IMG/VR virus record: IMGVR_UViG_3300012931_000042
Coordinates: 1-38,807 of that record
DNA from: a virus
DNA: 38,807 bases
Reading direction: 5' to 3' (one strand)
Positions 5,176-38,807 of the stretch are shown here, piece by piece. The notes below the pieces were generated by a model. That model was not told the DNA's origin and made no database searches. It was given only the letters and a program-made list of their open reading frames with translations. Position numbers and translations under genes: made by a program. Numbering within the stretch: position 1 is the first letter of the stretch; each line of letters begins with the position of its first letter.

Positions 5176-7503
5176 TTAGTTGTTCACTTGCCAATGAAAT
5201 GAGGATTTTTCGATGGTTATAGAATTTGACCCCGGAGCAAAAGTTCCTGCGCTCGTTGTGCTAACGATAGTGATCGCGCCGGCAGAAGATACTTTAAATC
5301 TAGCCCAAACATAGGTAGATGAAAAATAGAGCATCACCGGGAACGATCTATCTGTTGTTGGGTAAAATCTACTTGGGATCGTTGTTACAACTGCAATTGA
5401 AGTAGTCGATGCATTTCCAGTCATTGAAGCTAAGGTCGGAAAATCGCAAAAGCATATCTGGCCAATTTGGTGGAAATTTAAATAAATAGTGTATGTGCTA
5501 CTCGCAAAAGGGCCTGTGAGATAAGAAGAAAACGAGGTTGCTCCTTCGTATCTGTTGAGAAGAGTTTGAGTTCCTCCGGTTGCTACTGGCAAATATATTC
5601 CAGTGCCTGCATAAAGGCTCTTTGCTGCTGAAACGCCTCCTAGAGTTTCAATGGCTCCCGCGCCACTTGCGGCATCCGTTGCATCGTTAACATATATTTT
5701 TTTTGCAGCAGTTAATCCGCCAGCGGTATAAATTGAACCAGCAGAGCTTGTTGCTTCAGTCGTCGAATTTACATATACATTTGAAGCAGTAGTGATTCCG
5801 CCAGCGGTATAAATAGCTCCAGCAGAACTTGTTGCTGCTGTTGTCGAATTCACATAGATATTTGAAGCAGTAGCGATTCCGCCAACGGTATAAATAGCTC
5901 CAGCAGAGCTTGTTGCTTCAGTTGTCGAATTTACTGTAACTGAATCACCTGATGTTTTCGGGCTCAAAACTGTAGATGATCTAGACCATTGAGCATATTC
6001 GGAGATTTCGTTTACGGCGCCGACAATAGTTTTATTTGTTGTTGTAAATGAAGTATTTGAAGTATCTCCGAGCAAAATTGCTGTTGTAACATTTGGATCT
6101 TTTAATCCACTTGTTATCGTTAATGCTGAACTTAATGTTTTTGCGCCAGCAATCGTTTGAGCTGAATCATTAATGTGCCCGAAGGTTACTCCGCTTGCGG
6201 CCTCGACAAAGTGATCGGTCCACGTTATACCAGAAGAAATCGTCGAAAGATCGTCTACTCCAGTCAACAGCCTTGATTGAGGATCTATGTAACAATTACT
6301 TGTGTTTGAAACAGTAAAATATGGTGGAAGCTGAGTGTTTGTTATTGAAACAATGTTGTTTTCGGAACTCGATAGCATTTGCGTTGTGACATTGCTATTA
6401 AATATGCAATTGTCGATTCGACCAAAAGCATATGTGATAACTGTTGTTCCAAAATAACACTTTTCGGCTGCAGTAAAAAATACCGATCCGTAAACATCAG
6501 ATCCCGATGTATATGGAAAATTAATTGTTCCGCCACTATGAATCGACGAAAAATAACAGCCATAAAGCGAAACTCTAAATTGAGATTCGTTATTTGATTC
6601 AGATGAATATGCGAAATTTCCGAGTAAATTAACGTTTTGGAGAGTTATGTAGGCATAGTGCATTGTGCTATTGCTTACATCTCCGATTAGGAAGTCACCT
6701 GTTATTGTCCACGATGATTTTTTATTAAAAGTAGACGACCCAAACGGTCCATCATTTGCATATTCGTTTTCGACGAGAAATGATAGGGCCGGAGAGGAAA
6801 TAAGAGTTGAATATTCTTCTGGACGATTAAGGTTATAAGTTATGTTTCGATCTGTACCTCCCATGAGGCCTAAATAAACAGGGCCTCTCGCAATAAAATG
6901 GATAATTCTTGGTGTTATCGACCCAGGGAAGGTGATGTCTTCGTCATAAAACCCACTATAAACGTAGATCTTGTATGCGACATATTTATCGGTAGAAGAT
7001 GAAACATCTAAAGCAGGGATTGCATTAATTGCGTCCATGATCGAAGTGTAAGGACTGTTTTGCGATCCGTTTTGAATCGTTCCTGTATATGAAATATCAA
7101 CGAAAATAGTGTTAACTACTGAAGTCAAAGGCGCTTTATCGGAGTCAAGAGTATCAAGATCTGTTTTTAACTCATTGATTCCTCCAACGATTGTTTTATT
7201 TGTTGTTGTTAAAGAGGTATTCGATGAATCGCCGAGCAAAATAGAAGTTGTAACATTTGCGTCTTCGAGTCCTCCTGTGGCAATAATTGGAGCGCTGAAA
7301 GTTTTAATTCCAGTAATAGTTTCAGCGCCATCCAGATGGACAACATCATCGTCTAATCCACCAATAACCAAAGAATAGGTTATCTTTTTGCTAACTAGTT
7401 TCCCGGTCGTTGAGTCTGATTGAGAAATAACGAACAAATCCGTTGATTTTATTTCTGTTGCAGATTCAAGATTCGAGACAATCTTGCCATCTAGATTTGC
7501 CAT
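5176..7503 (-). CDS. Tail fibre / receptor-binding protein, 775 aa, with a beta-helix-like middle and 27-aa tandem repeats
   Basis: N-terminal anchor motif shared with the 899-aa protein. It has a duplicated shaft motif and four 27-aa repeats 'VNSTTEATSSAGAIYTxGGIxTASNxY'. The sequence is Ser/Thr/Asn/Gly-rich. Confidence 0.7.
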   Translation of the reverse strand: MANLDGKIVSNLESATEIKSTDLFVISQSDSTTGKLVSKKITYSLVIGGLDDDVVHLDGAETITGIKTFSAPIIATGGLEDANVTTSILLGDSSNTSLTTTNKTIVGGINELKTDLDTLDSDKAPLTSVVNTIFVDISYTGTIQNGSQNSPYTSIMDAINAIPALDVSSSTDKYVAYKIYVYSGFYDEDITFPGSITPRIIHFIARGPVYLGLMGGTDRNITYNLNRPEEYSTLISSPALSFLVENEYANDGPFGSSTFNKKSSWTITGDFLIGDVSNSTMHYAYITLQNVNLLGNFAYSSESNNESQFRVSLYGCYFSSIHSGGTINFPYTSGSDVYGSVFFTAAEKCYFGTTVITYAFGRIDNCIFNSNVTTQMLSSSENNIVSITNTQLPPYFTVSNTSNCYIDPQSRLLTGVDDLSTISSGITWTDHFVEAASGVTFGHINDSAQTIAGAKTLSSALTITSGLKDPNVTTAILLGDTSNTSFTTTNKTIVGAVNEISEYAQWSRSSTVLSPKTSGDSVTVNSTTEATSSAGAIYTVGGIATASNIYVNSTTAATSSAGAIYTAGGITTASNVYVNSTTEATSSAGSIYTAGGLTAAKKIYVNDATDAASGAGAIETLGGVSAAKSLYAGTGIYLPVATGGTQTLLNRYEGATSFSSYLTGPFASSTYTIYLNFHQIGQICFCDFPTLASMTGNASTTSIAVVTTIPSRFYPTTDRSFPVMLYFSSTYVWARFKVSSAGAITIVSTTSAGTFAPGSNSITIEKSSFHWQVNN
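5611..5934 (-). repeat. Four in-frame 81-nt tandem repeats inside the fibre gene
   Basis: Units at 5934-5854, 5853-5773, 5772-5692 and 5691-5611. They are nearly identical at DNA level (…ccgccagcggtataaatagctccagcaga…). Confidence 0.85.
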
Positions 7504-8295: not shown

Positions 8296-8310
8296 TTAAA
8301 ATTCGACTTA

Positions 8311-8372
8311 CCAAAACCGAATTCGGTTTTGCCTAAACCGAATCGGTTTTACCAAAACCGAATTCGGTTTTG
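8311..8372. repeat. Three tandem ~21-bp units, each a palindrome (AAAACCGAATTCGGTTTT)
   Basis: Perfect 18-nt palindromes at 8313-8330 and 8354-8371. Between them is an imperfect copy (aaaccgAATcggttt) at 8335-8349. Confidence 0.85.
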
Positions 8373-18683: not shown

Positions 18684-18768
18684 GGAGGGGTTCCCGAGCG
18701 GCCAAAGGGGACAGACTGTAAATCTGTTGGCGTTGCCTTCGTAGGTTCAAATCCTACTCCCTCCACCA
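18684..18768 (+). tRNA. tRNA-Tyr(GTA): tRNA-Tyr (anticodon GTA), class II with a long variable arm and encoded CCA
   Basis: Acceptor GGAGGGG/TCCCTCC. Anticodon stem acaga/tctgt with loop cTGTAaa. T-arm gtagg-ttcaaat-cctac. Discriminator A followed by CCA. Confidence 0.9.
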
Positions 18769-22343: not shown

Positions 22344-22722
22344 CGACAAACTCTACTGATATTTCTTTTTTTGCGTAATTTTTTGTGCGACCTGTTCCAG
22401 AATATTCGTCATTCAATTCCCATTCGAATGTTAAATCTTTTCCAACCAATTCATCTGTATCGTCGAAAGATTTTAACCCGACTGCCTTGCAGAGTTTACT
22501 CAGAATTTTTTTGGAAATTTGAACTGTGGCAGGATTTTCATTAACGATGTTAAATCGTTCCACCACGAATCTTCCTTTATAATTTCCATCGATGATCTCG
22601 ATGTTGACTTGTAGGTATTCTCCAGGATTCCGAGAACAAACTTTGATTTCCGCACTGCTTATCCTCCCATTATAAACTCCGGAAGGGAGGTTCGAGTCAG
22701 TCACGTCGAAATGATATCTCAT
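22324..22722 (-). CDS. DUF669-like protein (probable ssDNA-binding partner of Sak4), 132 aa
   Basis: Size, OB-like sequence pattern and synteny next to a Sak4-type ATPase. No decisive motif. Confidence 0.4.
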   Translation of the reverse strand: MRYHFDVTDSNLPSGVYNGRISSAEIKVCSRNPGEYLQVNIEIIDGNYKGRFVVERFNIVNENPATVQISKKILSKLCKAVGLKSFDDTDELVGKDLTFEWELNDEYSGTGRTKNYAKKEISVEFVDDDVPI

Positions 22723-23024
22723 ACTTTATCCTCTGCATTTATTCTAGATTTCAAAACAACACTTGGTCGAAAATAGATTTTTTTCTTTTTTGGCAAAAGC
22801 AAACGTTTCCCTTTCAAAATTACAGATCGTTCCTTCATTTCTCTAATGGAAAAAGCGCCAAAACCTCTTAAAAAAACTTCGTTTCCAAGAGATATTTTTT
22901 CGAAAACTTTTGCTAAAAATATATCTAAGTACTCTGTAAAAAAAAGTCTTTTCACTTTTTTTTGAGAATGTTCACAAACTTCGTCTATTGTTTCGCTAAT
23001 TAATTGCGATTTTGTTACTCTCAT
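22719..23024 (-). CDS. HU/IHF-family DNA-binding protein, 101 aa
   Basis: 'GNEVFLRGFGAFSIREMKERS...KKIYFRPSVVLKSRIN' matches the HU/IHF G-x-V-x-L-x-GFG-x-F...R...F-x-P pattern. Confidence 0.65.
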   Translation of the reverse strand: MRVTKSQLISETIDEVCEHSQKKVKRLFFTEYLDIFLAKVFEKISLGNEVFLRGFGAFSIREMKERSVILKGKRLLLPKKKKIYFRPSVVLKSRINAEDKV

Positions 23025-24287: not shown

Positions 24288-24824
24288 TTATTTGAAAGTC
24301 AAGCATGAATATATGCGATTTAACCATCCGAGTAAAAATTGTCGATTGTGAGGTTCTGTTGCGATTCTTCGATAACGATCAGTCAACAGACAAAGATAAA
24401 TATAGGAGAGAGGGTTCTCCTTGCAGGAATTTATGGTTGCCATAGTCTTCGCCCCTATTATCCCATCAGAGTCTAATCCGCAAGCAGGGAGCAGGACTAA
24501 GCATGCCTTCTGCAAAAGAAGGTTGGCCGTATAGGCACCCATGTTTACAGCACATGAAAAGCATAAAAAACCAAGTTTTTTGGGGAATTTTTCATAGTTA
24601 TTTTTCTCCCAAAACTCTTCGAAATAAATCTTTTTTGCGTTTTCGCGCGTCAGGCAAATGATCTCATTTTCTGGCATGTCTCTTTTATAGTACGTGCCGA
24701 GGAATCTCTTGGAGAGCCCGAACTTCGTAGGCCCTCCAGCATCTCCTTCTATTTTGCAGAAGATTCCTTCCTGTTCCATAAGAAGAGCGAAGGCGTTTTC
24801 AAAAAACGAAGAGTAGACCACCAT
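24288..24824 (-). CDS. Endolysin, GH108-type lysozyme with a C-terminal PG_binding_3-like domain, 178 aa
   Basis: N-terminal 'LLMEQEGIFCKIEGDAGGPTKFGLS' fits E-x-G...D-x-GG-x-T-x-x-G. C-terminal 'DSDGIIGAKTMATIN' fits the peptidoglycan-binding motif. Confidence 0.7.
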   Translation of the reverse strand: MVVYSSFFENAFALLMEQEGIFCKIEGDAGGPTKFGLSKRFLGTYYKRDMPENEIICLTRENAKKIYFEEFWEKNNYEKFPKKLGFLCFSCAVNMGAYTANLLLQKACLVLLPACGLDSDGIIGAKTMATINSCKENPLSYIYLCLLTDRYRRIATEPHNRQFLLGWLNRIYSCLTFK

Positions 24825-25045
24825 TATCGATTCCCTTTTGTTTCCGAGTCAGATTCCGAGTCCGAACTTAAATTGAATGTCGAATTGAAAATAGTTGGAT
24901 CTAATTCGTCCCGACGAATTACTACGTCGATCGGAGCGTCGAATTGAATTTTAACCTGTGATCCTTGGATAGATTTTACTGTTATCTTGATGGTGTCATC
25001 AATCCAAATTGATTGTCCTACCTTTCTTCCTAATGTTAACCCCAT
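24824..25045 (-). CDS. csrA: CsrA/RsmA-family RNA-binding regulator homologue, 73 aa with an acidic Ser-rich tail
   Basis: 'MGLTLGRKVGQSIWIDDTIKITVKSIQGSQVKIQFDAPIDVVIRRDEL' aligns along its length with CsrA '[47 protein letters not shown]'. Its TAA overlaps the endolysin ATG (TAATG). Confidence 0.75.
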   Translation of the reverse strand: MGLTLGRKVGQSIWIDDTIKITVKSIQGSQVKIQFDAPIDVVIRRDELDPTIFNSTFNLSSDSESDSETKGNR

Positions 25046-32111: not shown

Positions 32112-32291
32112 CTAATTATATGTTCTTACGTTTCGTCTTTCAATCCATTTTTTTACATCTTCTATGTCATATCTAATGGATTTTCCAATCCTTTTATAGT
32201 TCGGTACCTTCCCTTCTTTCCTATATCTTCGAAGAGTTACGGCCGATTTCTTTATCATTTTAGCAAAGTCAACTTCTTTTATTAGTTCCAT
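32112..32291 (-). CDS. Excisionase/AlpA-family HTH DNA-binding protein, 59 aa (not in the ORF track)
   Basis: Hand translation MELIKEVDFAKMIKKSAVTLRRYRKEGKVPNYKRIGKSIRYDIEDVKKWIERRNVRTYN. RBS is ggagaaaatc. It shows the typical 'tl.R....G..P....iG...rY....v..Wi' pattern. Confidence 0.6.
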   Translation of the reverse strand: MELIKEVDFAKMIKKSAVTLRRYRKEGKVPNYKRIGKSIRYDIEDVKKWIERRNVRTYN

Positions 32292-32300
32292 GATTTTCTC

Positions 32301-33152
32301 CTACATGTTCTCTTCGTATTGCGCGATTGTGTAAAAAATTATGTTTCTAAAGACGTTTTCTAACTTTTTTATTTGCTCTGTTTTTTCGGAAATTTCGCCG
32401 AACAAAGAAAGAACAAACTTTTCTATTTGATCATAATTGTCCGATGCGATCGATCTCGCTATTTCCTTAATTTCTTCGTCTTCGTCCGCAGATAAATCGC
32501 AAATTTTTTCCCAGACATCTTTTGAAAGAGATGCATCAATGCATTCATGGTACCAACGGGCTTTAAGCATTTCAGAGACGCAAAAAATAAACGTTAATTT
32601 TTTTGTCTTTGTAGAAAGTTTTTCGCCGAATATTCTTTGCCTTTCTTCATTGTTGTTCGCTGATGCCCGGCCATACGCTTCTATTGCAGAATGATTCTCT
32701 TCGTTTTCTTTTTCATCTTTTAAAGCTTGAATTATTTCTGGAGTCATTTCTTTTTTTTCAATTCTACTGAGGATTTCAACGACCGTTTCCTTTATTGATT
32801 TATTTTCATTTTTCAATAAAAAAAGCAATTTTTCTGTAATTTCTTTTCCCGAAAAAAATCTCAACGCTCTTATCGCTCTCTCTTTCTCGAATTTTTCTGA
32901 TGTATCGCATTGATTTAATACATTTTTTAGTATTTTTTTTGTCAAAAAACGTGACGGAAATTTTTCGACACATGCTAAAATGTGTTCATTTGATTCTTTG
33001 TTGTTTTTCTCGGCGATTTGGTCTACTAAATCGGCATATGGTAATTTTTCAAAGTCTTCATAGTGGCAATTAACAATATATTTCAAGACTATATTGTGTT
33101 CTTCTGCATTGTTACTTTTTGAAAAGTTCACTAACTCACAGAACACGCTCAT
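32301..33152 (-). CDS. Diverged HEAT-like repeat protein, 283 aa
   Basis: Degenerate units such as 'ERAIRALRFFSGKEITEKLLFLLKNENKSIKETVVEILSRIEKKEMTPEIIQALKDE'. RBS is aggagataaaaATG. Confidence 0.55.
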   Translation of the reverse strand: MSVFCELVNFSKSNNAEEHNIVLKYIVNCHYEDFEKLPYADLVDQIAEKNNKESNEHILACVEKFPSRFLTKKILKNVLNQCDTSEKFEKERAIRALRFFSGKEITEKLLFLLKNENKSIKETVVEILSRIEKKEMTPEIIQALKDEKENEENHSAIEAYGRASANNNEERQRIFGEKLSTKTKKLTFIFCVSEMLKARWYHECIDASLSKDVWEKICDLSADEDEEIKEIARSIASDNYDQIEKFVLSLFGEISEKTEQIKKLENVFRNIIFYTIAQYEENM

Positions 33153-33212: not shown

Positions 33213-33923
33213 TCATTCTTCTCTAAAATGCGGCGTCGCCCAAATTATTTTGTCAAAATTGACTTTTCTCCCATCCAAGCGCTCTTTCATTCTTTTTTGT
33301 TGAGCTTTTAGCTTGATTTTTTTTAAAGCTTCTTTTGCATCACTTCTAACCCATTCATGTTTGTCTTTAGAAAGCTTAATCAGAACTTGAATGACTTCAG
33401 GAGTAGCTGCTTTCTCTCCTAAGTTTCCTAAAGCTTCTGTTGCATCACTTCTCACCCATGCAGTTTCATCTCCACAGAACTTAATCAGAGTTTGAATGAC
33501 TTCTGGTGTTGCTGCTTTCCCTCCTAAGCGTCCTAAAGCCCGTACAGCATATCCTCTGATCCCTTCATCCTCGTCTTCGCAGAGCTTAATCAGAGCTTGA
33601 ATAACTTCAGGAGTTGCTGCTTTCCCTCCTAGGTTTCCCAAAGAACACGTGGCACTTTTTCTCACCCATTCATCCTGATCTCCAGTCAGTTTCACCAGAA
33701 CTTGAATAACCTCAGGAGTTGCTTTCTCTCCTAAGTTTCCCAAAGCCCAAAAGGCATATCCTCTGAACAATTCATCCTCGTCTTCGCAGAGCTTAATCAG
33801 AGCTTGAACTACCTCTGGTGTAGCTGCTTTCTCTCCTAGGTTTCCCAAAGCCCTTGCAGCATTCTCCTTTGTTTGTTTGTCTGAGCTTTCGCAATCTTTT
33901 AAAAGTTCGCTAATTGGTTTCAT
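33213..33923 (-). CDS. PBS-lyase/HEAT-like repeat protein H6, 236 aa (6 units plus a basic tail)
   Basis: Cap 'MKPISELLKDCES' followed by repeated 'ATPEVIQxLIKLxxDxDEWVRxxAxxALGNLGEKA'. Confidence 0.8.
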   Translation of the reverse strand: MKPISELLKDCESSDKQTKENAARALGNLGEKAATPEVVQALIKLCEDEDELFRGYAFWALGNLGEKATPEVIQVLVKLTGDQDEWVRKSATCSLGNLGGKAATPEVIQALIKLCEDEDEGIRGYAVRALGRLGGKAATPEVIQTLIKFCGDETAWVRSDATEALGNLGEKAATPEVIQVLIKLSKDKHEWVRSDAKEALKKIKLKAQQKRMKERLDGRKVNFDKIIWATPHFREE

Positions 33924-34437
33924 TTTTCTCTCCTAAGTATCCTAAAGATTCTGTTGCATTCCATCTAACCCATTCATCTTTGTCTCCCGAGAGCTTAATC
34001 AGAACTTGAATCACCTCAGGTGTGGCTTTTTCGCCTAATTCTCCTAAAGCCCACGCCGAGCTTCCTCTAACCAATCTACCCTTATCTCCCGAGAGTTTAA
34101 CCAGAGTTTGAATGACTTCAGGAGTTGTTGCTTTCTCTCCTAAAATTCCCAAAGCATCTACAGCAAATTTTCTCACCCATTCATACTGATCTTCAGCGAG
34201 TTTAATCAGAGCTTGAATCACCTCAGGAGTAGCTGCTTTCTCTCCTAAGTTTCCTAAAGCCCAAGCGGAATATCTTCTCGCCGACCTATCCTCGTCTCCC
34301 GAAAGTTTCACCAGAGCTTGAATGACTTCAGGTGTAGCTGCTTTTTCTCCTAACTCTCCTAAAGCTAGCGCGGATTCGATTCGCTCTGATCTGTCCATGC
34401 TTTCGCAAGCTTTTAAAAGTTCGTTAATTGTTTTCAT
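33910..34437 (-). CDS. PBS-lyase/HEAT-like repeat protein H5, 175 aa (5 units)
   Basis: Cap 'MKTINELLKACES'. It ends 'LGEKNETN' with a 14-nt overlap onto H6. Confidence 0.8.
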   Translation of the reverse strand: MKTINELLKACESMDRSERIESALALGELGEKAATPEVIQALVKLSGDEDRSARRYSAWALGNLGEKAATPEVIQALIKLAEDQYEWVRKFAVDALGILGEKATTPEVIQTLVKLSGDKGRLVRGSSAWALGELGEKATPEVIQVLIKLSGDKDEWVRWNATESLGYLGEKNETN

Positions 34438-35296
34438 TTTTCTCTCCTAAGTATCCTAAAGATCCTGTTGCGTTGCTTCTAATCCATTCATCCTTGTCTT
34501 CTGAAAGTTTAATCAGAGCTTGAATAACCTCAGGTGTGGCTTTTTCGCCTAAGTTCCCTAAAGCCCACGCGGCACTTTTTCTCACCCATTCATCTTGGTC
34601 TCCAGATAGTTTAATCAGAGCTTGAATTACCTCAGGAGTTGCCGCTTTTTCGCCTAAGTTCCCTAAAGCCCACGCGGCACTTTTTCTCACCCATTCATCT
34701 TGGTCTCCAGATAGTTTAATCAGAGTTTGAATTACCTCAGGAGTTGCCGCTTTTTCGCCTAAGTTCCCTAAAGCAAATGCGGCACTTTTTCTCACCCATT
34801 CATCTTGGTCTCCAGATAGTTTAATCAGAGTTTGAATTACCTCAGGAATAGTTTGAATTACTTCAGGTATGGCTTTCTTTCCTAGGTTCCCTAAAGCAAA
34901 TGCAGAATTTTCTCTGACGAATTAATTTTGATCTCCAGCGAGTTTAATCAGAACTTGAATCACTTCAGGAGTTGCGGCTTTTTCTCCTAAGCGTCCTAAA
35001 GCTCCTGTTGCGTGGCTTTGAACCCATCCATTATAGTCTCCAGTCAGTTTCACCAGAGTTTGAATGACTTCAGGAGTCGCTGCTTTTTCTCCTAAGTGCC
35101 CTAAAGCCAATGCGGAAACTGTTCGAACACATGCATCTTTGTCTTTAGAAAGCTTAATCAGAGCTTGAATAACTTCGGGTGTGGCCGCTTTTTCTCCTAT
35201 CGTTGCAAGTGTCCACGCGGCTTTCCACTTTATTTTTTTGTCTGAGCTTTCGCAAGCTTTTAAAAGCTCGTTTAATCTCTCGCTAATTGTTTTCAT
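34424..35296 (-). pseudogene. HEAT-like repeat gene H4 (8 units) interrupted by one in-frame TAA at 34922-34924. Otherwise one 290-codon frame.
   Basis: Hand translation across the stop reads ...IKLAGDQN*FVRENSAFALGNLGKKAIPEVIQTIPEVIQTLIKLSGDQDEW... and stays in frame. Paralogue H3 has TAC (Tyr) at this codon. The track splits it into 34922..35347 and 34424..34795. Confidence 0.6.
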
Positions 35297-35820
35297 TTTT
35301 CCACTCCTAAATATTCCAAAGCTTCTGTTGCAACTCTTCTCACCCATCCTTTCTGGTCTTCCGATAGCTTAATCAGAGCTTGAATAACCTCAGGTGTGGC
35401 TTTTTCTCCTAAGTTCCCTAAAGCAAATGCGGTTCTTTCTCTGACGAAGTAATTTTGATCTCCAGCGAGTTTAATCAGAACTTGAATCACCTCAGGAGTT
35501 GCAGCTTTTTCTCCTAAGTGTCCTAAAGCTCCTGTTGCGTGGCTTTGAACCCATCCATTATAGTCTCCAGTCAGTTTAACCAGAGTTTGAATGACTTCAG
35601 GTGTTGCTGCTTTTTCTCCTAAGAGTCCTAAAGCTAATGCGGCAATTGTTCTCACACATGCATCTTTGTCTTTAGATTGCTTAATCAGAGCTTGAATCAC
35701 TTCAGGTGTGGCCGCTTTCTCTCCTATCATTCCAAGTGTCCACGCGGCTTTCCACTTTATTTTTTTGTCTGAGCTTTCGCAATTTTTTAAAAGTTCGTTT
35801 AATATCTCGATAATTTCCAT
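35293..35820 (-). CDS. PBS-lyase/HEAT-like repeat protein H3, 175 aa (5 units)
   Basis: Cap 'MEIIEILNELLKNCES'. Near-identical to the first four units of H4. It shares an ATGA overlap with the H4 start. Confidence 0.8.
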   Translation of the reverse strand: MEIIEILNELLKNCESSDKKIKWKAAWTLGMIGEKAATPEVIQALIKQSKDKDACVRTIAALALGLLGEKAATPEVIQTLVKLTGDYNGWVQSHATGALGHLGEKAATPEVIQVLIKLAGDQNYFVRERTAFALGNLGEKATPEVIQALIKLSEDQKGWVRRVATEALEYLGVEK

Positions 35821-35841
35821 TTTTTTCTCCTAAATTTAATT

Positions 35842-36066
35842 TTACAAGATCAATTGTATTGCTTCTTCCCCCAATCGTCTCAAAGCGAACATGGCTTTTA
35901 TTTGAATTCTGTCGGAGTTTTGATCTTCGCAGAGCTTAATCAGAGCTTGAACTACCTCTGGTGTAGCTGCTTTCTCTCCTAATCTCCCTAAATTCCGCAC
36001 AGCATTTCTGCGTTTTATACCACTTTTGCTTTCGCAATTTTTTAAAATCTCGTTAATTGTTTTCAT
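35842..36066 (-). CDS. Short HEAT-like repeat protein H2, 74 aa (2 units)
   Basis: Cap 'MKTINEILKNCES'. 14-nt overlap with the H1 stop. Confidence 0.65.
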   Translation of the reverse strand: MKTINEILKNCESKSGIKRRNAVRNLGRLGEKAATPEVVQALIKLCEDQNSDRIQIKAMFALRRLGEEAIQLIL

Positions 36067-37024
36067 TTTTCTCTCCTAAATTTTCTAAAGCATCCGCGGC
36101 ACTTTTTCTAACCCATTCATCTTTGTCTCCCGAAAGTTTAATCAGAACTTGAATCACCTCAGGAGTTGCGGCTTTTTCTCCTAATCTCCCTAAAGCCCAC
36201 GCGGACTCGCTTCTAACCCATTCATCTTGGTCTCCCGATAGTTTCACCAGAACTTGAATCACTTCAGGAGTTGCGGCTTTTTCTCCTAATCTCCCTAAAG
36301 CCCACGCGGACTCGCTTCTAACCAATTCATCCTTGTCTTCGGAAAGTTTAATTAGAGTTTGAATCACCTCAGGAGTTGCAGCTTTTTCTCTAAAGTGTCC
36401 TAAAGCTTCTGCGGAATTTGTTCGAACTTTTTCATCTTTGTCTCCCGAAAGTTTAATCAGAGTTTGAATCACCTCAGGAGTTGCAGCTTTTTCTCCTAAG
36501 TGTTCAAATGCCCATGTAGCTTTTTCTCTGACGATTTTATTCCGGTCTCCCGAGAGCTTAATCAGAACTTGAATCACTTCAGGTGTGGTCGCTTTTTCTC
36601 CTAAGTCTCCTAAAGCTTCTGCAGCACTTCCTCTAGCTTTTTTGTTCTTGTGTTCAGCGAGTTTGCTCAGAATTCGAATCACCTCTTGTGTTGTTGCTTT
36701 TTCTACCAATTTCGCCAAAGCTTCTGCTGCAGAAGAAATTACGAGAGCAGATTCAGTATCGTCTTCGCATCGCATAATCAGAGCTTGAATCACCTCAGGT
36801 GTGGCTTTCTCTCCTAATCTCCCTAAAGCTCGCGCAGCGTGGATTCGAACGTAGAAGTCTTCAAAGTCTTGATCTTCCGAGAGCTTAATCAGAATTTGAA
36901 TAACCTCAGGAGTAGCTGATTCTTTTGCTAAGTTTTCTATTGCTTTCGCAGCTTTAATCCGAGCTGATCTGTCCCCTCTTTCGAATCTTTCAATGTTTCT
37001 TTCTAATGTTTTTTGAACGTTCAT
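36053..37024 (-). CDS. PBS-lyase/HEAT-like repeat protein H1, 323 aa (9 units)
   Basis: RBS ggagagatatcATG. The units become progressively closer to the consensus toward the C-terminus. It ends 'LGEKNENN'. Confidence 0.8.
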   Translation of the reverse strand: MNVQKTLERNIERFERGDRSARIKAAKAIENLAKESATPEVIQILIKLSEDQDFEDFYVRIHAARALGRLGEKATPEVIQALIMRCEDDTESALVISSAAEALAKLVEKATTQEVIRILSKLAEHKNKKARGSAAEALGDLGEKATTPEVIQVLIKLSGDRNKIVREKATWAFEHLGEKAATPEVIQTLIKLSGDKDEKVRTNSAEALGHFREKAATPEVIQTLIKLSEDKDELVRSESAWALGRLGEKAATPEVIQVLVKLSGDQDEWVRSESAWALGRLGEKAATPEVIQVLIKLSGDKDEWVRKSAADALENLGEKNENN

Positions 37025-37064: not shown

Positions 37065-37090
37065 GATCACATAGTATCACGTATGATCAC
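37065..37090. promoter_or_regulatory. Three (G/T)ATCAC repeats phased at exactly 10 bp, upstream of the HEAT operon (candidate operator overlapping a weak leftward promoter)
   Basis: GATCAC at 37065, TATCAC at 37075 and GATCAC at 37085. On the minus strand, TTGCAA (37098-37093), a 16-nt spacer and TACTAT overlap them. Confidence 0.3.
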
Positions 37091-37220: not shown

Positions 37221-37248
37221 TTGACACGTCAAAGTTATGCGCTATAAT
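37221..37248 (+). promoter_or_regulatory. Near-consensus sigma70-type promoter TTGACA-N16-TATAAT
   Basis: TTGACA at 37221-37226 and TATAAT at 37243-37248, read directly. The -35 lies inside the inverted repeat CTTGAC-AC-GTCAAG. Confidence 0.6.
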
Positions 37249-37482: not shown

Positions 37483-38807
37483 TCAGTCTGAAAGCAATCT
37501 AGCAAGAATAGTCTTCGCACTCGTTTCTGTCGCTTTTCCAGAAGATCTTCCTAATCTTGCCAGTATTTCAGCTAGCTTGTCAGCTCTAGAAGGACTAACA
37601 GCTGCGCGCGCAACATAATCAGACATTTTCGGTCCGATCTCGCCGAGTCCGAGTGCGAGCAGAGATGCAGCGCTCGTCGGAGTTAATCCACTTGTTAGCC
37701 CTGAGGCCGCTCCGGCTCCTGCCAAAATTTTTCCAAGTTTGCTACCGATTACTCTGTTGTACAGACTATGTGCTTGCGTGAGTTTCGAGCTCGCGATATC
37801 TTGCATTTCTTTGATCGCTGCTAGACTTTTTGGGGCGACAAGATCGAGCATCTCTTTCTCTGCGAGACGCCCAGGCCGGCGCAAAAGACCGGTTAGTGTT
37901 GTATTCTCTGGAGAGCCGAGAGCGAGATATTCAAGATTTTGGCGCAGTTTCGGATTCGCTGTTTTAAAAATTTCTTTGATTGAAGATCTTTCCTTCGGAT
38001 TTTTAAACGCGCTCAAAAATCTTGGCAATGTCACGTCTTGAGTGACCGGCCCTTCTTTCTCTTCTGTTATTGCTCTTATTGCTCTAGAGCCTCTGTAAGG
38101 ATTGATGTATTTGTCGAAGTATTCTTGATTTAACGCTCTGAATTTTTCTCCGAACCCTTTCTCTGGCACATATGTATCTAATGTGTCAGAGATATCTGAT
38201 CCTAGTTTTTTTAACATATAGTTTATTTTTTGTATCTTGTCTCGACTGTTCGGATCTTTTGCTGAAATATAACGTCTTTCAGCCGATAGCTGTTTGTGAA
38301 GCTCATGAGCGCTTTCCAAGGTCGGAGTCTTCAAATATTTGTGCAATCTTGTTTTGGTTTCTAAAGGCAAATCTTTTGTTAAGTCAGAACCTAGATCGCT
38401 GTAGACTCGTTTCTTTGCCGTCAATTCAGAAAGAGTGTCTTTTGGGATTATCTTTTGTAGCTTTTCTGGAGATACTCCACGGAACATTTTGGACAAACTC
38501 TCGTCATATTTTGTTGTTTCTTGCATCAGATCACTTCCGAGCGTATTGCTTATCATTTCTTTTTTTTTCAACTCAGGAGTGAAGATCTCGTTATATCTTT
38601 TTCCGAATTCTTCTCTTGTGTTCTTGCCGGCTTCAGCTACAAATCCTTTCGATTCTTTTAAAACGTCTTCTTGTGTTCCGCTGTAATTTTTATACAACGA
38701 CTGAGCTTTTTCCGCGATTAGTTTTAACGGACTGTTCTTTAAAGCGCCCAAAACTGCTCCTCCAACTCCGCCCGCAACTCTTAACGGAGCTTCAATTGCC
38801 GCAGAGC
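37483..38807 (-). CDS. C-terminal part of the same ~603-aa internal virion/ejection protein
   Basis: Track ORF 37483..38751 extended in frame to the window end. It is the last gene of the leftward structural operon and has a Gly/Ala-rich hydrophobic C-terminal segment. Confidence 0.6.
   Translation of the reverse strand, partial: SAAIEAPLRVAGGVGGAVLGALKNSPLKLIAEKAQSLYKNYSGTQEDVLKESKGFVAEAGKNTREEFGKRYNEIFTPELKKKEMISNTLGSDLMQETTKYDESLSKMFRGVSPEKLQKIIPKDTLSELTAKKRVYSDLGSDLTKDLPLETKTRLHKYLKTPTLESAHELHKQLSAERRYISAKDPNSRDKIQKINYMLKKLGSDISDTLDTYVPEKGFGEKFRALNQEYFDKYINPYRGSRAIRAITEEKEGPVTQDVTLPRFLSAFKNPKERSSIKEIFKTANPKLRQNLEYLALGSPENTTLTGLLRRPGRLAEKEMLDLVAPKSLAAIKEMQDIASSKLTQAHSLYNRVIGSKLGKILAGAGAASGLTSGLTPTSAASLLALGLGEIGPKMSDYVARAAVSPSRADKLAEILARLGRSSGKATETSAKTILARLLSD
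38685..38807. repeat. Terminal direct repeat (right copy)
   Basis: Same 123 nt as bases 1-123. Confidence 0.95.

Follow-up and report, generated by a model that had tools for sequence, protein, structure and literature searches.

What does a phage do with a row of proteins built from one HEAT-like repeat, and has selection diversified their surfaces? These questions are raised by IMG/VR virus record IMGVR_UViG_3300012931_000042, of which positions 1 to 38,807 were analysed (the window, 38,807 nucleotides). Its minus strand carries, between 33213 and 37024, six consecutive HEAT_2/HEAT_PBS genes, A to F, made almost wholly of one 105-nucleotide (35-residue) repeat, and a seventh paralogue, G, adjoins F (Table 1). 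A first-pass annotation of the sequence had proposed a natural binder library under diversifying selection, or a modular recognition code, rather than drift of redundant copies. We found that the scaffold of the unit is under strong purifying selection (ω, or dN/dS, of 0.10-0.25), that six positions of helix 2 and two of the preceding loop change at about the synonymous rate, and that the family has grown by duplication of units, duplication of whole genes and recombination between units. The interpretation towards which we lean, without great confidence, is a tandem multigene family of alphaRep-like HEAT/ARM solenoids that bind proteins or peptides, diversify by duplication and recombination, and probably act in host interaction or counter-defence.

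Variable positions and fold of the repeat unit

A hidden Markov model of the unit confined the repeats to 33318-36913. The array holds 29 canonical internal units of 34 or 35 residues, six N-caps and one partial unit of 7 residues, in line with the earlier estimate of about 35 units, and all nine example strings that had been quoted for them are present. Shannon entropy was determined per column in the register T1-P-E-V-I-Q-x-L-I-K-L-S-G-D-x-x-x-x-V-R-x-x-A-A-x-A-L-G-x-L-G-E-K33. It was high (2.0-3.15 bits) at columns 15, 16, 17, 18, 21, 22, 25 and 29, the last six of these reaching 2.4-3.15 bits, intermediate (1.2-1.8 bits) at columns 7, 12, 13, 23 and 24, and at most 0.72 bits at 15 nearly invariant columns. 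Half of the pairwise amino-acid differences fell in the eight high-entropy columns, which make up 24% of the 33-column unit, and 73% fell in 13 columns. Entropy is thus not evenly spread along the unit, and the view that variation is confined to a few positions on a near-invariant scaffold was borne out. Of the sites named at first reading, "three after VR" and "two before ALG" were slight overstatements, columns 23 and 24 holding only small residues (A/S/T/V). The variable positions hold up to 11 residue types each. Mean identity between units was 0.61, and only D5-D7 exceeded 94% at the nucleotide level.

Pfam assigned HEAT_2, HEAT, HEAT_EZ, HEAT_PBS and Arm to the products, with HEAT_2, HEAT_PBS and Arm above the Pfam cutoffs. 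HEAT_2 scored 65-167 bits in A, C, D, E and F (cutoff 27.7) and 28.4 bits in the truncated B, while HEAT_PBS was above its cutoff of 20.9 in all six (32-106 bits). The best sequence match in the PDB was an artificial alphaRep protein, 4zv6 (E = 5e-49); alphaRep proteins derive from natural HEAT-like repeats of the PBS-lyase type found in thermostable proteins. An AlphaFold2 model of gene A (pLDDT 89.9, pTM 0.81) had regular helix(10)-loop(5)-helix(13)-turn(4) units, the single turn being the "GEKA" element, as expected of an alpha-solenoid of stacked antiparallel helix pairs. Foldseek placed 4zv6 first for this model as well (TM-score 0.81); designed armadillo proteins, PP2A-A and importin-alpha ranked next.

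The match to alphaRep extends to the variable sites. Phage columns 17, 18, 21, 22, 25 and 29 align residue for residue with alphaRep positions 18, 19, 22, 23, 26 and 30; the six most variable helix-2 columns are therefore the six positions randomised in alphaRep. These six positions sit on the concave face that contacts targets, and the residue frequencies used to randomise them were taken from "a collection of natural alphaRep-like motifs" (Guellouz et al., PMC3754942). Since that design copied natural variability, the variable-site pattern belongs to the repeat family. Both systems share a two-helix unit, the "VRxxAAxALGxxG" skeleton and exactly the same six hypervariable positions. They differ in period, which in the phage is 105 nucleotides, equal to 35 or at times 34 residues, against 31 in alphaRep, four residues ("ATPE") being inserted in the linker. 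In addition, the phage array is natural, is split into seven genes, varies at loop columns 15 and 16 as well, and has a much higher Trp content. Surface placement of the variable columns was derived from the alphaRep register and a helical-wheel calculation. On the wheel the six variable columns span 0-140 degrees and the conserved V19, R20, A23, A24, A26, L27 and L30 span 180-340 degrees, so that the variable residues form one face of helix 2. This face contains 13.7% Trp and 27% aromatic residues, compared with 0.9% Trp in ten long open reading frames (ORFs) of the phage.

Armadillo repeats provided a second comparison. Helix 2, "AAWALGNLG", aligns with H3, "ALWALSNIA", in designed armadillo proteins whose crystals contained (KR)n peptides, which puts Trp25 and Asn29 on the positions of the armadillo Trp/Asn ladder. 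The function of this ladder reportedly goes back to work of Conti et al. in 1998. Of 28 units, 8 have Trp25 and 10 have Asn29, and the two occur together only in D6, D7, E1 and F1; elsewhere the two positions vary. Pfam Arm is above its cutoff, and the Foldseek matches include complexes of designed armadillo repeat proteins with peptides. The armadillo unit, however, has 42 residues and three helices, whereas the phage unit has 35, with H1 shrunk to one turn of four residues, and BLASTP alignment needed a gap of seven residues in each unit. Armadillo repeats bind K/R-peptides in a modular way (PMC10115654), and a looser "modular peptide recognition" of this type may, judging from the alignment, apply to the phage proteins too.

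Selection and recombination among the units

Nei-Gojobori counts over all unit pairs gave proportions of synonymous (pS) and nonsynonymous (pN) differences of 0.63 and 0.49 at the variable columns, and of 0.47 and 0.098 in the scaffold. Synonymous divergence was thus not concentrated at the variable codons. Because it is evenly spread, the contrast between scaffold and variable columns has a selective rather than a mutational cause. Among eight pairs of closely similar units that are roughly independent of one another, the six key columns contained 18.8 nonsynonymous and 3.2 synonymous differences (dN/dS 0.97), as against 10 and 28 in the scaffold (dN/dS 0.10; Fisher p = 3e-5). The six columns did not differ from the neutral expectation (p = 1.0 in these pairs and 0.39 in the count on the all-codon tree). 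A parsimony (SLAC-like) count on the unit tree gave ω values of 0.99-1.01 for these columns and, for the 25 columns that remain when the eight hypervariable ones are set aside, 0.25. When the tree was built from scaffold codons only, ω was 1.18-1.35 for the six columns and about 1.5 for each of columns 21, 22, 25 and 29; the nominal p values of the best single columns (0.03-0.05) were lost after correction for 33 columns. The pairwise homoplasy (PHI) test indicated recombination within units (p < 0.0005), which confounds the ω tests and points to shuffling as a mechanism. With no ω significantly above 1 (0.97-1.35), diversifying selection at the hypervariable columns is no more than possible on these data.

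A separate observation concerns codons 5-8 of every 105-nucleotide unit (for example 34732-34721 in D6), where ATT-CAA-NNT-CTG forms a synonymous cold spot with 1 synonymous change against about 21.6 expected. The CTG is present in 28 of 29 units, though it is the rarest Leu codon (5%) in the ten long phage ORFs. The flanking codons are synonymously saturated, and codon 7 alternates among A, V, T and I, always by way of RYT codons. The cold spot might serve to anchor recombination or act as a signal in the RNA or in translation.

NACHT relatives and competing interpretations

By sequence comparison, the nearest relatives of the phage units are the C-terminal arrays of NACHT proteins. A HMMER scan of 1.84 billion representative proteins gave 45,689 matches, with a best identity of 49%, and the best 150 of these were all long proteins (639-7,886 residues). 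Pfam NACHT was found upstream of the HEAT array in six of six top matches tested, two of which also contained TIR and one an ADP-ribosyltransferase domain. A local NACHT profile was positive in 94 of the best 150 matches, and in 31 of the best 40 when matches were ranked by score per unit, which removes length bias. Matches on genome contigs, from Beggiatoa and Coxiellaceae metagenome-assembled genomes and from an uncultured bacterium, were likewise proteins that combine a P-loop NTPase with HEAT repeats. P0024 and P0047, among the closest relatives, are ADP-ribosyltransferase-TIR-NACHT-HEAT proteins annotated from bdelloid rotifers (Adineta), and the repeat subtype is therefore not confined to bacteria.

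A cellular unit, for example in P0025, reads "GEKAATNEVINGLVKALNDExxxVRxxACEALxxI". The entropy profile within cellular NACHT-HEAT proteins correlated with that of the phage array (Spearman 0.78, p = 8e-8), seven of the eight top columns being common to both, and the cellular scaffolds were more uniform (median unit identity 0.74 vs 0.61). The variable-site pattern is therefore real but a known property of this repeat type, not one special to the phage. C-terminal repeats of bacterial NACHT proteins have been described as "antigen-receptor-type" sensors, and repeat-sensor bacterial NACHT proteins defend against phages (Kibby et al., bioRxiv 10.1101/2022.07.19.500537). Fungal NLR repeats combine high internal conservation with hypervariable, positively selected positions on the binding face and with repeat shuffling (Dyrka et al.; Paoletti et al.; PMC4986451). 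The NLR/STAND repeat sensors (bacterial NACHT HEAT arrays, fungal HNWD) are thus the nearest sequence relatives, with the same entropy profile and the same unit duplication and recombination. In them, however, the array lies C-terminal to a NACHT or NB-ARC NTPase, whereas all seven phage genes are stand-alone, with no NTPase or effector attached. For the fungal repeats a threshold of more than 85% internal identity has been used (Dyrka et al. 2014), compared with a mean of 0.61 in the phage, and they show positive selection at hypervariable sites, where the phage ω is 0.97-1.35 with recombination confounding it.

We found no orthologous array in 50,697 phage genomes by nucleotide and protein searches, in two scans of IMG/VR, or in protein collections of 5.8 billion and 1.84 billion sequences (best identity 49%), and what turned up in scans of genome and metagenome contigs was confined to HEAT proteins that were NACHT-type or generic. 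Among viral structures, BFVD contained no close match, and PHROGs gave only weak ones, to families of unknown function; beyond weak matches, INPHARED, IMG/VR, BFVD and PHROGs yielded no HEAT protein of this type from a phage, and no phage HEAT paralogue arrays were found in the literature. Multigene families of repeat proteins are known from other viruses, namely the poxvirus ankyrin host-range genes, MGF360/505 of African swine fever virus and the ANK/F-box genes of giant viruses. They resemble the phage array in their tandem paralogues, birth-and-death turnover and presumed host interaction, and differ from it in repeat type and in virus kingdom.

The array is best read as encoding small, soluble, acidic alpha-solenoids of an N-cap and 1-8 units of 35 residues. 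Purifying selection maintains helix 1 and the linker, together with that face of helix 2 which is buried. Stacking of the units would line up the variable positions as one stripe along the concave groove, which would be the ligand-binding surface as in alphaRep and the NACHT sensors; each paralogue would therefore present a different Trp-rich surface and bind a different protein or extended peptide. The ligands would most likely be host or phage proteins bound in infection, for host takeover or counter-defence. Given the kinship of the units with NACHT sensor arrays, interference with NLR-like sensing is conceivable. The family would grow by unit and gene duplication and by unit recombination, some members decaying. 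Of the earlier proposal of a binder library under diversifying selection, what stands is that the contrast is selective (Fisher p = 3e-5) and that the alphaRep positions match; an ω significantly above 1 was not reached (0.97-1.35), no column being significant after correction.

Several points weigh against a family of diversified binders. The entropy pattern is generic to the repeat family and alone is no sign of specialised binding, an ω of about 1 is also expected of unconstrained surface residues, and orthologous arrays for comparison are absent from the collections searched. What suggests a counter-defence role is the relatedness of the repeats to NACHT arrays, at 49% identity or less, and the PADLOC matches were only to HEAT modules of defence proteins, that is, similarity at the level of the repeat. 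In addition, the same genome in ENA closes as a circle by a 141-nucleotide overlap at 34480-34620, inside the near-identical D5-D7 units (D7/D8), which leaves their copy number uncertain and possibly under-counted.

Neutral drift would mean that redundant copies have a generic, sequence-insensitive role (scaffold, chaperone) or no current role, and that the variable columns are merely exposed and unconstrained. We consider it unlikely, yet a real rival because ω is about 1: with the all-codon tree the six columns (ω 0.97-1.01) could not be distinguished from neutral, and the first-pass phrase "rather than drift" was in this respect too strong. The same columns vary across the repeat family, and there are signs of decay in the truncation of B, the high divergence of G and a nonsense allele of D in the window. 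Maintained function is, however, indicated by the share of the compact genome taken up by these six or seven genes (12%), by their intact ribosome-binding sites and by the scaffold ω of 0.1-0.25. Freely drifting exposed positions would not be expected to hold the Trp and aromatic content found here, and the scaffold-only tree gave an ω of 1.2-1.35, with about 1.5 for each of four columns. That the pattern was made by targeted mutagenesis (a diversity-generating retroelement or local hypermutation) or by an assembly artefact is very improbable. Repeats are hard to assemble; two Logan contigs break within the array, one at 36548 and one at 33426 of the window, and the ends of the ENA contig join in D7/D8. 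On the other hand, the two assemblies agree across the array but for one base (one mismatch in 4,328 aligned nucleotides), coherent reading frames are kept throughout by units that differ by 1-25%, synonymous changes do not cluster at the variable codons, and no reverse transcriptase was found among the phage ORFs scanned. A diversity-generating retroelement or other mutational origin was therefore rejected.

A modular code for nucleic acids, as in PPR, PUF or TALE proteins, where each unit reads one base, deserves hardly any credence, and the "modular recognition code" of the first-pass annotation is unlikely in this sense. The period of 35 residues is that of PPR motifs, and designed PPR proteins are among the weaker PDB sequence matches (E ~1e-10). 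No PPR stretch passes the threshold alone, however, against E = 5e-49 for alphaRep, and no PPR family is among the Pfam matches listed (the best 25 for gene A). The proteins are acidic (pI 4.9-6.3), where such a code calls for a basic binding surface, and their variable positions number six to eight, each with as many as 11 residue types, where the code would use two or three positions of restricted residue choice. More credible, though still improbable, is that the array is a captured decoy, a host NACHT repeat sensor taken without NTPase or effector that sequesters the sensed phage or host protein or poisons NLR assembly. The closest unit relatives are NACHT-associated, the arrays lack a fused NTPase, neither a NACHT nor a STAND NTPase was detected among the phage ORFs scanned, and bacterial proteins with such sensors defend against phages. 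Identity to any NACHT array is, however, at most 49%, so that a capture would not have been recent; the divergence of G points to a long stay of the family in the phage lineage, and no precedent for a phage-encoded repeat decoy of this type was found in the literature. A broader proposal, for which we see a limited chance, is a phage repertoire of stand-alone sensor-type HEAT arrays that serve as decoys or traps against host NLR-like defence or capture host proteins, with specificities generated by unit recombination, possibly aided by a 12-nucleotide block in each unit that is invariant at the nucleotide level.

The sequence pattern is a known design, and what is unusual is the setting, in which a compact phage devotes about 12% of its 38,684-bp genome to seven stand-alone arrays of a type that cells attach to NACHT immune NTPases. 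Should the products bind host defence components or mask phage triggers, they would constitute a new class of phage counter-defence derived from host sensor architecture, and would offer stable binder scaffolds from a natural source.

Array genes, assemblies and the rest of the phage genome

Table 1. Genes and other features of the HEAT array (window positions)
Feature	Position	Strand	Description
Gene A	36053-37024	-	323 aa; N-cap, eight units (first three degenerate), C-terminal "GEKNENN"; HEAT_2 E = 8.6e-50
Gene B	35842-36066	-	74 aa, truncated; N-cap and one degenerate unit; HEAT_PBS E = 8e-8
Gene C	35293-35820	-	175 aa; N-cap and four units; ENA gene call identical
Gene D	34424-35296	-	~290 codons; chimera
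Gene E	33910-34437	-	175 aa; N-cap and four units; overlaps D by 14 nt
Gene F	33213-33923	-	236 aa; N-cap, five units, basic 35-residue C-terminal tail; overlaps E by 14 nt
Gene G	32301-33152	-	283 aa; strongly diverged seventh paralogue, adjoins F; HEAT_2 27.2 bits, just under cutoff 27.7
21-nt partial-unit duplication "IPEVIQT"	34850-34870	-	out of register; joint of C-like and A/E-like halves of D
Putative array promoter TTGACT-16-AAAAAT	37063-37036	-	consensus scan; weak promoter-like site, function inferred
Three GTGAT(C/A) repeats	37065-37090	-	10-nt spacing; abut -35 of putative gene-A promoter

Gene D shows its composite origin in its units: D0-D3 resemble C0-C3 (89-97% nucleotide identity), D5-D7 are three near-identical units (95-99% at the nucleotide level), and D8 is a terminal unit. 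The "IPEVIQT" duplication at the joint sits within the nucleotide-invariant block and was found in both assemblies. Compared with a profile of A-F by hhalign, G matched with a probability of 91% (E = 1e-6) over the N-cap and first units. Directly downstream of G, a 59-residue ORF (~32112-32291) encodes an HTH_17 protein according to precomputed Pfam marks on the ENA copy.

Three junctions, A/B, D/E and E/F, consist of 14-nucleotide stop/start overlaps at 36053-36066, 34424-34437 and 33910-33923 ("GGAGAGAAAAATGAAAACAATTAA"), so that, at the first of them, B starts before A has ended; C and D overlap in a similar way over a shorter stretch. In the 14-nucleotide overlaps the AGGAG ribosome-binding site for the following gene is provided by the "LGEK" codons in the last unit of the preceding one, and "MKTIN" is read across "GEKNENN-stop". 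Since every HEAT gene has its own AGGAG ribosome-binding site, 6-8 nucleotides 5' of the ATG, the genes look, as judged from these signals, separately translated. The AGGAGA motif also recurs in every internal unit, there without an ATG after it. A programmed frameshift joining the HEAT genes was rejected on account of the +1 position of the downstream frame, the lack of a slippery heptamer and these separate ribosome-binding sites. The set of GTGAT(C/A) repeats next to the putative promoter occurs only there in the genome. On the other strand, a perfect TTGACA-16-TATAAT at 37221-37248 is directed away from the array.

The exact terminal repeat of 123 nucleotides (bases 1-123 equal 38685-38807) marks the window as a complete circular phage assembly with a unique length of 38,684 bp. 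The same genome is present in ENA contig k141_51895, whose 38,825 bp correspond to 38,684 plus the 141-nucleotide overlap. The one mismatch between the two across the array affects D. In the window an in-frame TAA in unit D3 (34922-34924, minus strand) splits the gene, while the ENA assembly and paralogue C have TAC (Tyr); D is therefore intact in k141_51895, where it reads through for at least 272 residues. The TAA is a nonsense polymorphism or a base error. The translation of E is identical in ENA contig L019.

The genome is that of a podovirus and encodes a P22-like portal, a large terminase (TerL), a major head protein and a GH108 endolysin, together with a recombination set of RusA, DUF669 and a Sak4-like annealase. 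The structural genes are followed by a 458-nucleotide spacer, which contains the weak promoter-like site and the three phased GTGAT(C/A) repeats, and then by the HEAT array. TerL has hundreds of relatives at 44-52% identity, on contigs of 30-43 kb, which make up a large uncultured podovirus clade. No HEAT units were found in about 76 kb from four of these relatives, in which the position syntenic to the array (downstream of a 603-residue gene) was not reached. This gene (P0289) is interrupted by the cut of the window; it occupies 37483-38751 and resumes from 124 to ~610, the listed 422-residue ORF being only its C-terminal part.

Precomputed Pfam marks on the ENA copy also indicated a CsrA homologue (24824-25045) and a HU-like DNA-binding protein (22719-23024). 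The gene of a 775-residue tail protein (5176-7503) contains an 81-nucleotide tandem repeat in about 3 copies (5645-5934) and a 143-nucleotide dispersed repeat (6020-6162 and 7184-7326). A palindromic 20-nucleotide tandem repeat (CCAAAACCGAATTCGGTTTTG) fills part of the gap between a 246-residue gene and the major head gene, at 8300-8372. The sole RNA gene detected by ARAGORN and Rfam was a tRNA-Tyr (anticodon GTA) at 18684-18768.

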